Notes: a model not told the origin generated them from the sequence alone. A stretch of 19,790 nucleotides of DNA from a virus (IMGVR_UViG_2872180393_000005:1-19790), one strand, 5' to 3'. Counted from the stretch's first letter, positions 3,664 to 15,657 are shown. A program made the numbers and translations.

Positions 3664-4017
3664 TTACACCGGAATATTCTCATCGTATCCTGCTTGTTGC
3701 GTTTCGTTTTGTGTTTGTGGATCCGGGAATGCATATTCAACGCCTTCCAGTTCAATCCATAGTGCATTACGACCAGCTTTGATTGTCGGCCAGTCCATAC
3801 CTTTGATTCTTTCCCATGAGCGGGAGGTGAATGTTTTTTCCAGCAAATCAGCTTTTGCGCGTTTGGCGTCGTTACTGGTGCCCCCATGGTGCTTGTTGAG
3901 CAACTCGATAATTTCATCAAGTGCGATTTCTTTTGCACGCTTTTCTTTTAGCCATGTCGGTGTACCGTCGTTGGCAAATAATTCACTGTTATCCCGTGAG
4001 GTATCGATGCCGAGGTG
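3664..4017 (-). pseudogene. 3' fragment of an unidentified phage early gene, 5' end removed at the IS600 copy 2 boundary
   Basis: Open minus-strand frame runs without a start codon from the IS600 boundary at 4018 to the stop at 3664 (...LKEKRAKEIALDEIIELLNKHHGG...). Confidence 0.45.
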
Positions 4018-4081
4018 TGAGGTAGCCTGAGTTTAACGGACACTCCTTCCTGAAATAGAATGGCATCAGAAGGAGCTAATA

Positions 4082-4384
4082 ATGAGCAGAAAAACCCAAC
4101 GTTACTCTAAAGAGTTCAAAGCCGAAGCTGTCAGAACGGTTCTTGAAAATCAACTTTCGATCAGTGAAGGCGCTTCCCGATTATCCCTTCCTGAAGGCAC
4201 TTTAGGACAATGGGTTACCGCCGCCAGAAAAGGGCTCGGTACTCCTGGTTCCCGCACGGTGGCTGAACTGGAATCTGAAATTCTGCAACTGCGTAAGGCG
4301 TTAAATGAAGCTCGCCTTGAGCGAGATATATTAAAAAAAGCAACAGCGTATTTTGCACAGGAGTCGCTGAAAAATACGCGTTAA
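4082..4384 (+). CDS. IS600 transposase OrfA
   Basis: Protein identical to copy 1 OrfA. Confidence 0.9.
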   Translation: MSRKTQRYSKEFKAEAVRTVLENQLSISEGASRLSLPEGTLGQWVTAARKGLGTPGSRTVAELESEILQLRKALNEARLERDILKKATAYFAQESLKNTR

Positions 4385-4419
4385 TCGAACAATGGCGACA
4401 ACAATTTCCCATTGAAGCG

Positions 4420-5238
4420 ATGTGTCAGGTATTTGGTGTATCCAGGAGCGGTTATTACAACTGGGTACAGCATGAACCCTCAGACAGAAAACAAAGTGAT
4501 GAGCGGCTAAAACTGGAGATTAAGGTGGCACATATCCGCACTCGCGAAACATATGGAACCCGGCGGCTCCAGACGGAGCTGGCAGAGAATGGCATCATCG
4601 TTGGTCGTGACCGACTGGCACGTCTTCGTAAGGAGCTAAGGCTACGCTGTAAGCAGAAACGCAAGTTCAGAGCGACTACGAACCCGAACCACAATCTGCC
4701 AGTTGCGCCAAATCTGCTGAACCAGACGTTCGCTCCTACAGCACCAAATCAGGTCTGGGTGGCGGACCTGACGTATGTTGCCACACAGGAGGGATGGTTG
4801 TACCTAGCTGGCATCAAAGATGTTTATACGTGCGAAATTGTCGGCTACGCCATGGGAGAGCGCATGACAAAAGAGCTGACAGGTAAAGCCCTGTTTATGG
4901 CGCTCAGGAGCCAGCGCCCACCTGCCGGGCTAATCCACCACTCTGATCGAGGTTCACAGTACTGCGCATACGATTACCGGGTCATACAGGAGCAGTTTGG
5001 TCTGAAAACATCAATGTTGCGTAAAGGTAACTGTTACGACAACGCTCCGATGGAAAGCTTCTGGGGAACGCTGAAAAATGAGAGCCTGAGCCACTATCGT
5101 TTTAATAACCGGGATGAAGCCATCTCAGTAATACGGGAATACATTGAGATTTTCTACAATCGTCAGCGTCGTCACTCTCGTCTGGGGAATATCTCCCCGG
5201 CAGCCTTCAGGGAAAAATATCATCAGATGGCTGCTTAA
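4420..5238 (+). CDS. IS600 transposase OrfB (one substitution, S to L, relative to copy 1)
   Basis: KTSMLRKGN here versus KTSMSRKGN in copies 1 and 3. Confidence 0.85.
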   Translation: MCQVFGVSRSGYYNWVQHEPSDRKQSDERLKLEIKVAHIRTRETYGTRRLQTELAENGIIVGRDRLARLRKELRLRCKQKRKFRATTNPNHNLPVAPNLLNQTFAPTAPNQVWVADLTYVATQEGWLYLAGIKDVYTCEIVGYAMGERMTKELTGKALFMALRSQRPPAGLIHHSDRGSQYCAYDYRVIQEQFGLKTSMLRKGNCYDNAPMESFWGTLKNESLSHYRFNNRDEAISVIREYIEIFYNRQRRHSRLGNISPAAFREKYHQMAA

Positions 5239-5281
5239 AAAAAGAACAAATGGTAGTGTCCGCTATTGCCAGTACACCTCA

Positions 5282-5786
5282 CACCTATAAGAAATCGGCA
5301 AAAGGGCGAAAAAAGAAACGTTCGAAAGGTCAGAGTGGTTTAAACAAAACAGACAAAGAACAGAGCAAATCAGCAAAAGAAGCTTGGTTGATCTTCAGCA
5401 GTACAAATGACTTCAGAGCGCGAGAAATCATCAAGTTATACAGTCGGTAAATGCAGATAGAGCAAAACTTTCGTGATGAAAAGAACGGGCGCTTCGGATT
5501 TGGTCTTCGGGCCAGCAAAAGTCGTTCAACAGGAAGAATTCTGGTTCTGAGTCTGCTGGCAACGTTGAGCACTATCGTAATGTGGTTACTCGGTTATCTC
5601 GCTGAAAATAAAGGGTTACACCTGAAATATCAGGCTAACAGCATTAAATCCCGGCGGGTTATCTCATATCTGACGTTAGCGAAGAATGTTCTTCGACACT
5701 CGTCACTTATTTTAAGACGAACAGTACTGAGCACAGTTCTAAACCATCTGTCCAGAACCTACCGAAATATGGTGCTGGTTTATTAG
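5282..5786 (+). pseudogene. IS4-family transposase C-terminal fragment with an in-frame TAA stop
   Basis: N-terminally truncated; TAA at 5448..5450 sits where the arginine of the Y-R-E-K signature is expected (LYSR*MQIEQNFRDEK). Confidence 0.6.
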
Positions 5787-13609: not shown

Positions 13610-13880
13610 AATCTTAACTACAATATGATTCATTTTGATGATTGTTTCATAAGGAACAGTGAAGTAAGATCTTAGAGGAGTTAAATTTTATACAGTATAA
13701 TCATAATGTTGCAGCAAGGTGGTTATAATTGAAAGAATATTTAGATATGAATACATCTCATGTAAGAGTTGTTACTCATATGTGTGGGTTCCTGGTTTGG
13801 CTCTATAGTCTTTCAATGTTGCCACCAATGGTTGTAGTGAGGTGTACTGGCAATAGCGGACACTACCATTTGTTCTTTTT

Positions 13881-14699
13881 TTAAGCAGCCATCTGATGAT
13901 ATTTTTCCCTGAAGGCTGCCGGGGAGATATTCCCCAGACGAGAGTGACGACGCTGACGATTGTAGAAAATCTCAATGTATTCCCGTATTACTGAGATGGC
14001 TTCATCCCGGTTATTAAAACGATAGTGGCTCAGGCTCTCATTTTTCAGCGTTCCCCAGAAGCTTTCCATCGGAGCGTTGTCGTAACAGTTACCTTTACGC
14101 GACATTGATGTTTTCAGACCAAACTGCTCCTGTATGACCCGGTAATCGTATGCGCAGTACTGTGAACCTCGATCAGAGTGGTGGATTAGCCCGGCAGGTG
14201 GGCGCTGGCTCCTGAGCGCCATAAACAGGGCTTTACCTGTCAGCTCTTTTGTCATGCGCTCTCCCATGGCGTAGCCGACAATTTCGCACGTATAAACATC
14301 TTTGATGCCAGCGAGGTACAACCATCCCTCCTGTGTGGCAACATACGTCAGGTCCGCCACCCAGACCTGATTTGGTGCTGTAGGAGCGAACGTCTGGTTC
14401 AGCAGATTTGGCGCAACTGGCAGATTGTGGTTCGGGTTCGTAGTCGCTCTGAACTTGCGTTTCTGCTTACAGCGTAGCCTTAGCTCCTTACGAAGACGTG
14501 CCAGTCGGTCACGACCAACGATGATGCCATTCTCTGCCAGCTCCGTCTGGAGCCGCCGGGTTCCATATGTTTCGCGAGTGCGGATATGTGCCACCTTAAT
14601 CTCCAGTTTTAGCCGCTCATCACTTTGTTTTCTGTCTGAGGGTTCATGCTGTACCCGGTTGTAATAACCGCTCCTGGATACACCAAATACCTGACACAT
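13881..14699 (-). CDS. IS600 transposase OrfB (one substitution, W to R, relative to copy 1)
   Basis: YYNRVQ here versus YYNWVQ in copies 1 and 2. Confidence 0.85.
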   Translation of the reverse strand: MCQVFGVSRSGYYNRVQHEPSDRKQSDERLKLEIKVAHIRTRETYGTRRLQTELAENGIIVGRDRLARLRKELRLRCKQKRKFRATTNPNHNLPVAPNLLNQTFAPTAPNQVWVADLTYVATQEGWLYLAGIKDVYTCEIVGYAMGERMTKELTGKALFMALRSQRPPAGLIHHSDRGSQYCAYDYRVIQEQFGLKTSMSRKGNCYDNAPMESFWGTLKNESLSHYRFNNRDEAISVIREYIEIFYNRQRRHSRLGNISPAAFREKYHQMAA

Positions 14700-14734
14700 C
14701 GCTTCAATGGGAAATTGTTGTCGCCATTGTTCGA

Positions 14735-15037
14735 TTAACGCGTATTTTTCAGCGACTCCTGTGCAAAATACGCTGTTGCTTTTTTTAATATATCTCGCTC
14801 AAGGCGAGCTTCATTTAACGCCTTACGCAGTTGCAGAATTTCAGATTCCAGTTCAGCCACCGTGCGGGAACCAGGAGTACCGAGCCCTTTTCTGGCGGCG
14901 GTAACCCATTGTCCTAAAGTGCCTTCAGGAAGGGATAATCGGGAAGCGCCTTCACTGATCGAAAGTTGATTTTCAAGAACCGTTCTGACAGCTTCGGCTT
15001 TGAACTCTTTAGAGTAACGTTGGGTTTTTCTGCTCAT
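14735..15037 (-). CDS. IS600 transposase OrfA
   Basis: Protein identical to copies 1 and 2. Confidence 0.9.
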   Translation of the reverse strand: MSRKTQRYSKEFKAEAVRTVLENQLSISEGASRLSLPEGTLGQWVTAARKGLGTPGSRTVAELESEILQLRKALNEARLERDILKKATAYFAQESLKNTR

Positions 15038-15101
15038 TATTAGCTCTTTCTGATGCCATTCTATTTCAGGAAGGAGTGTCCGTTAAACTCAGGCTACCTC
15101 A

Positions 15102-15657
15102 GTATTCCGTTGCTGGCCGCCAGGGCATCATACCCGACACACGGTTTGAAGGGGTGCTCAGCATCCGGTGGACTGATGCACACCCTGAGACAATAGAACC
15201 GCGGTACAGAGCCAAATCCCTTACTTTTTACGGCATTAACGGCCCCATTTATCACACCCGCTACTGCTACTGGCCCATATCCAGACTGACTGGGTGAAAA
15301 TAAATATAACCACAGAAGATATTATTTACAGAATCGTGGCGAGCTCTGTCTGCAACAGATGGGGAGACCCTGACATTGGCGGGCTGATTATTGCTGCGTA
15401 CCAGGGAGAAGCTGACGGTGATAAAGTCATCAGACTTGTCAGGGGGCAGTCATACAGAGGCTCACGACTGGGACCGGTGGGGATTTCAGTGCCCAGTACT
15501 CCCACCGGAACGCATATAGCATACCCACAATTTTTCATTACGGGATGTTCAGAGCATTCATTACCGGGGTCATATTGCGCCCTGTCCGGGGTGCCGGATG
15601 CACATGTCTCTGGCGCAATGCCCGGGCTTTTTATTCGCACATCGTGAGGAATGCACC
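15102..15657 (+). pseudogene. Possible 3' remnant of a tail-fibre gene, truncated by IS600 copy 3; frame unresolved
   Basis: Position immediately upstream of the putative tail-fibre assembly gene; Gly/Ser/Pro-rich frame at 15294..15647; weak evidence. Confidence 0.25.

Follow-up and report, generated by a model that had tools for sequence, protein, structure and literature searches.

IS600 copies lacking target duplications very probably mark deletion junctions in a decayed ipaH-carrying prophage

Between yebY and pphA lies a decayed lambdoid prophage that carries an ipaH gene and three complete copies of the insertion sequence IS600. One copy is flanked by a target duplication and two are not, which raises the question of how these two came to sit between their present neighbours. 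The window (the whole stretch of DNA analysed, 19,790 nucleotides) is 100% identical to record CP026846.1 of NCBI assembly GCA_002949495.1 and contains the following features:

1-342, + strand: yebY, left chromosomal neighbour of the prophage (annotation in matching E. coli loci; Pfam YebY)
735-1811, - strand: integrase gene, intact, 358 aa (ORF list; Pfam Phage_integrase)
1964-3227, + strand: IS600 copy 1, in the excisionase gene (direct sequence reading)
3436-3624, - strand: DUF1187 gene, 62 aa in the source-genome call (Pfam DUF1187; ORF list)
3664-4017, - strand: 3' remnant of an AAA_24 ATPase gene, bordering copy 2 on the left with GTG
4018-5281, + strand: complete IS600 copy 2, lacking a target duplication, flanks GTG and CAC
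5282-5815, + strand: 3' ~530 bp of ISSfl1 (IS4 family), right flank of copy 2
5816-13746, + strand: surviving middle block of the prophage (Pfam table, tRNA scan, lysis-cassette matches)
13747-13837, + strand: 5' remnant of trkG (30 codons, 91 nt), bordering copy 3 on the left with TAG
13838-15101, - strand: complete IS600 copy 3 in inverted orientation, lacking a target duplication
15102-15647, + strand: 3' remnant of a tail-fibre gene (phage_tail_N family), right flank of copy 3
15598-16221, + strand: DUF4376 gene, 3' of the tail-fibre gene
16401-18116, - strand: ipaH gene, prophage cargo (annotated ipaH3 in VL40; Pfam LRR_TTSS and NEL)
18855-19514, + strand: pphA, right chromosomal neighbour of the prophage

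The counterpart of the integrase is annotated as a tyrosine recombinase in two of the loci fetched for comparison (L001 and L003; L numbers denote such loci throughout). The middle block encodes DUF7167, ORF6N, hok, Rem, DUF1367, YbcO, DUF1133 (Q-like), holin, lysozyme and Rz, its lysis genes matching lambdoid and Rac-like lysis cassettes, and a tRNA scan places four tRNA genes within it at 11447-11757. The ipaH product, with its LRR_TTSS and NEL domains (Pfam), belongs to the type III secreted E3 ubiquitin ligases. The mechanical ORF for the DUF1187 gene extends to 3657 and has the same stop codon as the 62-aa product.

All three IS600 copies are 1264 bp long with TG...CA ends and are 99.5-99.6% identical to RefSeq elements annotated as 'IS3-like element IS600 family transposase'. 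The terminal inverted repeats are imperfect (IRL, TGAGGTAGCCTGAGTTTAACGGACAC; reverse complement of IRR, TGAGGTGTACTGGCAATAGCGGACAC). Each copy has ORFs of 100 aa and 272 aa with the Pfam domains HTH_Tnp_1 and rve, and an orfA/orfB fusion is predicted from the annotation, RefSeq tagging identical elements with 'programmed frameshift'. Of the distinct, complete IS600 elements found across the fetched loci, 13 (copy 1 and 12 others) have a 3-bp duplication and eight (copies 2 and 3 and six others) do not, the probability that two 3-bp flanks agree by chance being 1/64. Duplication is therefore the usual outcome of IS600 insertion, and its absence is informative. Four kinds of copy were compared with their surroundings in relatives, namely copies 2 and 3, the copy in L050, and the copy between portal and tail-fibre genes of the L007/L011 type; beside all of them, genes known from relatives are absent.

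Copy 1 is a simple insertion with target duplication. ATG stands on both sides of it (1961-1963 and 3228-3230), the element is 99.5% identical to RefSeq-annotated IS600, and the uninterrupted site, reading ...GGATAA ATG TTTCC..., is found in five relatives (L001, L003, L029, L033 and L048). A re-reading of the flanking triplets returned exactly those given in the preliminary description: ATG twice for copy 1, GTG and CAC for copy 2, and TAC and CTA for copy 3 in the element's own orientation, which on the + strand are TAG and GTA.

At copy 2, both neighbours are truncated. The ATPase remnant comprises residues 249-365 of 365 (the last 117 codons), it encodes exactly the C-terminus of the ATPase in enteroinvasive E. 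coli VL40, and the unbroken gene continues across the junction point as ...GAGGTG|TTCACCTCC in five relatives (L003, L029, L030, L035 and L038). The gene is thus of the AAA_24 type and not recT. On the other side, the first ~770 bp of ISSfl1 are gone, and what remains is 98.9% identical over 534 bp to annotated ISSfl1. At its outer end, upstream of the DUF7167 gene, the junction made when it inserted is still in place. In L051, a complete ~1.3-kb ISSfl1 occupies exactly this site; it shares the end junction (...CCCTCAGGCCC|GAAAGGGCGG), has inverted ends CTGAGGAATTCCC and CTGAGGGATCCCC and is flanked by a duplication of ~9-10 bp. The identity, the DDE_Tnp_1 transposase and the genuine terminus all place the element in ISSfl1. 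Thus the preliminary description was right that a truncated early gene and a truncated insertion sequence adjoin copy 2, and its 'IS10-like' element becomes ISSfl1.

The two junction points of copy 2 lie 13,724 bp apart in VL40, and copy 2 stands in for about 12-14 kb of lost DNA. This comprised the 5' two-thirds of the ATPase gene, gam and exoVIII, the genes for immunity and replication, and about 770 bp from the 5' side of an ISSfl1 already in place. L029, L035 and L038 retain the 5' part of the ATPase gene, gam, exoVIII, the Rha gene and repressor-type regulator genes. Both junctions recur in L033 and L048. The ATPase gene, ISSfl1 and the IS end all contain the motif CACCT; a microhomology-mediated deletion was nevertheless rejected, because the IS end is complete, 2 bp ('TT') are missing at the ATPase site and there is no 3-bp duplication.

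Copy 3 lies where the head and tail genes are missing, as first described, but it does not adjoin Rz directly; ~228 bp intervene, including the first 30 codons of trkG. This phage cargo gene is recognisable from the translation of its remnant, MNTSHVRVVTHMCGFLVWLYSLSMLPPMVV, which matches the N-terminus of TrkG from E. coli 042, and it is unbroken at the same point in L004, L005 and L033. The tail-fibre remnant begins inside codon 285 of 468 and is a 99% match to the VL40 locus (L003) from position 36273 on; the gene is unbroken at the copy-3 point in L008 and L010. Both copy-3 junctions recur in L009 and L012. The most direct comparison comes from GCA_031665755.1, which has both copy-2 junctions in common with the window while both copy-3 sites are uninterrupted (trkG, ...GGTTGTAG|CATTG; tail fibre, ...CAGGTGA|GTATTCC). 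There the trkG point and the tail-fibre point are 19,322 bp apart. Copy 3 therefore stands in for about 19 kb of lost DNA, which held all of trkG beyond its remnant, the genes for terminase, portal, head and tail, and the first 60% of the tail-fibre gene.

Copies 2 and 3 are thus very probably IS600-associated deletion junctions. The flanks of each are non-contiguous, and relatives at the yebY-pphA locus continue from every one of them into intact sequence, as shown by the comparison with related prophages that the preliminary description had proposed. Its further proposal, that deletion had removed the immunity, replication and virion genes, is borne out by sister genomes that keep the missing DNA at the same locus. 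Both ends of copies 2 and 3 are complete and meet their flanks precisely, so each junction was made by transposase; and since the prophage flanks on the yebY side and the pphA side are both collinear with E. coli, the missing DNA was lost, not inverted. Alternative junctions had also been anticipated in related genomes, and one, nested with respect to copy 2, was found in L050. When the copies and their flanks were searched against 5426 complete E. coli genomes, the four copy-2 and copy-3 junctions were found in none. An apparent match in FDAARGOS_943 was discarded, as it consisted of IS600 copies elsewhere in that genome merged into one match.

How the deletions arose is less certain, and we lean towards recombination between two IS600 copies as the somewhat more likely route. 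IS3-family transposition keeps the donor copy in place, so same-orientation pairs build up. IS600 would have inserted normally, in the same orientation, at both ends of each segment now lost; host homologous recombination between the paired copies would then have excised the interval and left one hybrid IS600, flanked on the left as one parent had been and on the right as the other had been. Copies 2 and 3 have the form expected of such hybrids, each being a single complete element with no duplication and with ancestrally non-adjacent flanks, and relatives hold the intervening DNA (L029, L035, L038, L051 and L003, and for copy 3 L033 together with L010). ISSfl1 would have inserted first, the deletion at copy 2 would have followed, and the deletion at copy 3 and the insertion of copy 1 would have come after that.

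Recombination of this kind predicts specific parental junctions. For copy 2, these are the IS600 right end followed by GTG and the ATPase gene (CAGTACACCTCAGTGTTCACCTCCCAGG), and ISSfl1 followed by CAC and the IS600 left end (GGCATTTTTACACTGAGGTAGCCTGAG); for copy 3, they are the IS600 left end (reverse complement) followed by TAG and trkG (CAGGCTACCTCATAGCATTGTTTTATAAAG), and the tail-fibre gene followed by GTA and the IS600 right end (reverse complement) (GCTGCCAGGTGAGTATGAGGTGTACTGGC). No parental IS600 pair with its own duplications was found in the fetched loci or in the 5426 complete E. coli genomes, nor any genome with IS600 in the parental state at the ATPase GTG, the ISSfl1 CAC, the trkG TAG or the tail-fibre GTA. 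Pattern scans of species-representative genomes and of metagenomes, with one parental junction each, gave no match; the existing copy-2 junction was absent from them too, so these collections are without this lineage and uninformative on the parents. Shigella assemblies were sampled through exact-protein look-ups only. Sister genomes do have IS600 in both genes, as different insertions: 61 bp away and with the duplication CCA in the ATPase gene, and 452 or 600 bp away and in the opposite orientation in the tail-fibre gene. The 15 variable sites among the IS600 copies form a mosaic, with no hybrid pattern readable in copies 2 and 3.

Alternatively, a single IS600 copy may have made each deletion: after it had inserted normally at one of the two sites, transposase would have transferred one of its ends to another position in the same molecule, with loss of the interval. 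Variants of this route invoke a tandem-dimer intermediate, or an activity of the IS-excision-enhancer type on an IS3-family element, and none involves a second parental copy. We consider it possible, if on balance unlikely. L050 has a near-identical IRR-to-ISSfl1 junction to that of copy 2, while its IRL meets the integrase gene, at window position 1157. A deletion nested in this way, with one end fixed, is predicted by one-ended adjacent deletions. IS600 is abundant in these genomes, however, and nested junctions are explained equally well by recombination with additional copies. L009 has a complete IS600 directly before IS600 positions 475-1264, with the trkG remnant coming next, as if the end of one copy had been joined inside another; the same arrangement would result from an assembly error, or from insertion of one IS into another and subsequent recombination. 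The usual route of IS3-family elements, copy-out and paste-in, counts against the single-copy route in that it yields simple insertions.

The sequences beside copy 2 bear on the same alternative. Both of its junctions adjoin AGGTG, a motif enriched beside IS600 ends, so both were transposase-made. Across the fetched loci, 5 of 55 distinct IS600 flanks end in AGGTR, where ~0.1 would be expected by chance, and both copy-2 flanks, which read AGGTG|IS|CACCT, are among the five. AGGTR resembles the terminal TGAGGTR of IS600 itself. It is conceivable, though we think it rather doubtful, that IS600 favours joining its ends beside such terminus-like sites and that the deletions are direct products of transposase and not of host recombination. 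Were this targeting real, and were it to drive one-ended intramolecular strand transfer, deletions would be aimed at end-like sites.

The missing duplications would also follow if DNA had been moved and not lost, through inversion or translocation between IS600 copies, whether in this prophage or in others. Copies 2 and 3 are mutually inverted, the same genomes have several prophages sharing near-identical lysis cassettes and tail-fibre/DUF4376/ipaH modules, and high rearrangement rates in Shigella are on record (PMC8072062). An inversion between copies 2 and 3 was nonetheless rejected: undoing it leaves the triplets unmatched (GTG with CTA, GTG with GTA), and the segment between the two copies is in the normal late-gene orientation. 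The gene order and orientation in the window are those of sister prophages, with both chromosomal flanks in place. We therefore judge either rearrangement very unlikely. That the gaps are older than IS600, the segments having been lost otherwise and IS600 having inserted later at the junctions, is the least credible explanation; nothing was found in its favour, insertion into an old junction would give the 3-bp duplication that copies 2 and 3 do not have, each IS600 end is complete and meets its flank precisely, and none of the relatives examined has the gap without IS600 at either copy. In L038, immunity and replication genes were lost independently beside a different IS, so prophage decay at this locus is multi-causal.

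The locus closely follows what is known of Shigella genome decay, in which IS1, IS2, IS4, IS600 and IS911 have expanded and deletions occur between homologous copies (PMC7373316, PMC5629016). Common to both are an amplified IS3-family element, a single duplication-less IS joining sequences that are distant in relatives, and lost pieces that vary from strain to strain (PMC7373316, PMC5629016); there is no difference in kind, the present case being one prophage locus traced by its junctions. The process is ordinary IS-driven genome decay, already well documented in Shigella, and alters no current view. The junctions likewise resemble the IS-excision-enhancer cases described in PMC9397093 (and by Kusumoto et al. 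2011, cited there), in which an IS3-family element is involved, IS-flanking DNA is lost and related strains show nested variants. Here, in contrast, the IS stays with both ends intact.

The layout is that of other defective ipaH lambdoid prophages of Shigella and enteroinvasive E. coli, with the integrase by yebY and the tail-fibre, DUF4376 and ipaH genes by pphA, and the arrangement of Rac-like lysis genes, trkG and terminase is that of an E. coli 042 prophage and phage vB_EcoS-683R6. The window has lost its modules for immunity, replication, head and tail, of which VL40 and several sister genomes keep differing subsets. Excision was lost with copy 1, which lies in xis, while copy 2 marks the loss of immunity and replication and copy 3 that of virion production. 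This provides a junction-level account of an ipaH prophage locked into the chromosome with its effector gene kept, and the sister genomes allow the events to be placed in relative order.

In the exact-protein look-ups, a 154-aa Rz returned no record, and the lysozyme proved to be spread over too many prophages to mark the locus. The DUF4376 protein led to paralogous ipaH modules only, and the 160-aa Rz and the integrase were nearly exclusive to the source genome.

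The window holds a single decayed lambdoid prophage, carrying ipaH, between yebY and pphA, and is 100% identical to record CP026846.1 of genome GCA_002949495.1. Its gene content, with ipaH and a high density of IS600 and ISSfl1, is of Shigella/enteroinvasive E. coli type, as are its closest relatives. Repeat finding and direct reading located three complete 1264-bp copies of the IS3-family element IS600, and the flanking triplets recorded for them in the preliminary description proved exact:

1-342, yebY, at one edge of the window
1964-3227, plus strand, IS600 copy 1, flanked by ATG and ATG (element orientation)
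3664-4017, minus strand, left flank of copy 2, the last 117 codons of a 365-residue AAA_24 ATPase gene
4018-5281, plus strand, IS600 copy 2, flanked by GTG and CAC (element orientation)
5282-5815, right flank of copy 2, the 3' ~530 bp of ISSfl1 (IS4 family)
13838-15101, minus strand, IS600 copy 3, flanked by TAC and CTA in element orientation (TAG and GTA on the plus strand)
16401-18116, minus strand, ipaH effector gene carried by the prophage
18855-19514, pphA, at the other edge of the window

All three copies are at least 99.5% identical to RefSeq-annotated IS600 and have the expected TG...CA inverted ends and orfA/orfB pair. Across the loci fetched, a 3-bp duplication accompanies 13 distinct IS600 insertions and is missing from 8. 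Insertion thus normally leaves a duplication, and the lack of one points to a further event. At copy 1 the element has simply inserted into the excisionase gene: E. coli 20.1, enteroinvasive E. coli VL40 and three sister genomes with the same prophage retain the site GGATAA-ATG-TTTCC uninterrupted.

Copies 2 and 3 had been proposed to sit at deletion junctions, and the relatives support this. All four of their flanks continue as intact sequence at the same locus in other genomes, and both chromosomal sides of the prophage are in normal order and orientation. Alignment of the flanks to related prophages delimited the missing segments: the copy-2 junction points lie 13,724 bp apart in VL40, where this prophage occupies the same locus and is more complete, and the copy-3 points 19,322 bp apart in the sister genome GCA_031665755.1. 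Each end of both copies is complete to the last base, which marks the junctions as the work of transposase rather than of random breakage. The same junctions lacking IS600, the observation that the preliminary description had set against its own reading, were looked for among the relatives, and neither gap was found there without the element. The original observation is confirmed and its interpretation supported.

Across the copy-2 point, the intact ATPase gene reads ...GAGGTG/TTCACCTCC in five relatives (the slash marks the junction); recT was ruled out as the identity of this gene. On the other side, the outer end of the ISSfl1 remnant retains its insertion site directly upstream of a DUF7167 gene, and GCA_900618165.1 (locus L051) carries a complete ISSfl1 at precisely this position, accompanied by a ~9-10 bp duplication. 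The VL40 interval contains gam, exoVIII, a Rha regulator gene, toxin-antitoxin, immunity, replication, DUF1627 and DUF977 genes, and IS2. Three sister genomes (L029, L035 and L038) retain the 5' part of the ATPase gene, gam, exoVIII and genes beyond. Their ATPase gene does contain an IS600, but its CCA duplication and its distance of 61 bp from the copy-2 junction show it to be a different insertion. In L038 (GCA_002968135.1, 1259-2561), the immunity and replication region is gone at another junction, from the equivalent of window position 6544 to the Rha gene, filled by a different IS (DDE_3 transposase, IS630-like); this loss is an independent event.

For copy 3, GCA_031665755.1 (L033 and L010) is the decisive comparison. 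It shares copy 2, and at the copy-3 point both trkG (...GGTTGTAG/CATTG) and the tail-fibre gene (...CAGGTGA/GTATTCC) are uninterrupted. Between them lie the remainder of trkG, the genes for both terminase subunits and the portal, and more uncharacterised genes, presumably for head and tail, as well as an IS600 placed elsewhere than copy 3. Copy 3 had been described as lying between Rz/Rz1 and a tail-fibre remnant. The tail-fibre side holds, the right flank beginning within codon 285 of a 468-codon phage_tail_N-family gene, but the left flank is the start of trkG: Rz ends at 13609, and between it and the element come intergenic DNA and trkG codons 1-30 (13747-13837). In VL40, the DUF4376 gene and ipaH follow the tail-fibre gene exactly as in the window. 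Five further loci (L007, L011, L013, L014 and L015) keep trkG and the terminase and portal genes, followed by their own duplication-less IS600 before the tail-fibre gene, the mark of a deletion that occurred independently in this prophage.

The pattern of junction sharing among genomes gives the relative order of events. ISSfl1, present in all three genome classes, would have inserted upstream of the DUF7167 gene first. The copy-2 deletion would have followed; both of its junctions are common to two sister genomes (L033 and L048). The copy-3 deletion, found in the source genome and L009, and the copy-1 insertion, found in the source genome, would be the latest.

Two routes to these deletions fit the data. 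In the one we favour, by a modest degree, IS600 would insert normally at both borders of a segment in the same orientation, and homologous recombination between the paired copies would then remove the interval. This agrees with the behaviour of IS3-family elements. It also agrees with the accepted view for Shigella (PMC7373316, PMC5629016). However, none of the parental insertions that it requires was found. Less probably, each deletion was the work of a single IS600, either by intramolecular strand transfer or aided by an IS-excision enhancer (PMC9397093). Observations at two loci lean this way. In L050 (GCA_002968245.1, 4781-6044), an IS600 has almost the right-hand junction of copy 2, 2 bp shorter and with CCTATAAG next to the IS end, but on the left it abuts the interior of the integrase gene (window position 1157). 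The deletion there is nested and more extensive, taking out the integrase N-terminus, xis, a DUF1187 gene and the ATPase remnant. In L009 (CP119446.1, 14331-16384), the site equivalent to copy 3 has a complete IS600 running straight into a partial one (positions 475-1264), beyond which lies the trkG remnant; this arrangement could reflect a deletion intermediate, an assembly error or a later insertion of one IS into another. Comparing the bases at which IS600 copies differ did not help in choosing between routes. All other explanations taken together are very improbable. L009 also has a complete ISSfl1 within its tail-fibre remnant (window-equivalent 15581-15593).

Five insertion sequences, IS600 among them, have expanded in every Shigella species, and IS-driven deletion and pseudogene formation are described as hallmarks of these genomes (PMC7373316). 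For the virulence plasmid, recombination between IS copies is documented (PMC5629016). The deletions here are an already known kind of event, and copies 2 and 3 offer a clean local example of IS-driven decay in an ipaH prophage.

The copy-2 flanks (4013-4017 and 5282-5286) form a perfect 5-bp inverted repeat, AGGTG/IS/CACCT, resembling the IS600 terminus TGAGGTR; the observation on IS600 flanks also draws on loci L025, L042, L047 and L051. The target in the ATPase gene, GAGGTG-TT-CACCTC, is a short palindrome in its own right. AGGTR lies directly at the IS end in 5 of the 55 distinct IS600 flanks from all fetched loci (~0.1 expected by chance), which suggests that IS600 may prefer to insert beside sequences like its own ends.

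Several other features of the prophage were recorded. Four tRNA genes (Met-CAT, Arg-TCT, Thr-TGT and Gly-TCC; 11447-11757) lie between a Q-like gene and the lysis cassette, a typical lambdoid late-region arrangement. Diverged direct repeats (7141-7782 and 10403-11038; 78-90% identity), each with an ORF6N-family gene, enclose a hok, Rem, DUF1367, YbcO and DUF1133 block. L033, L047, L048 and L051 have one repeat copy only and lack window ~7222/7772 to 10403/10485, reflecting either deletion between repeats or acquisition in the window's type. Tail-fibre, DUF4376 and ipaH modules recur in several prophage remnants per genome (L039/L040, L042, L044, L045), with an identical DUF4376 protein in each, and CP026846.1 has an extra one ~40 kb upstream of the window; these paralogous modules are additional substrates for inter-prophage recombination. 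Finally, in this lineage of ipaH prophages (L004, L005, L011, L033), trkG, known from the Rac prophage of E. coli K-12, has Rz on one side and the small terminase gene on the other. In phage vB_EcoS-683R6 and the Rac-like prophage of E. coli 042 it likewise follows the lysis cassette as a cargo gene, but there the small terminase gene is ~1.8 kb away, beyond a ParB-like gene and more ORFs. trkG behaves as a transferable phage cargo gene.
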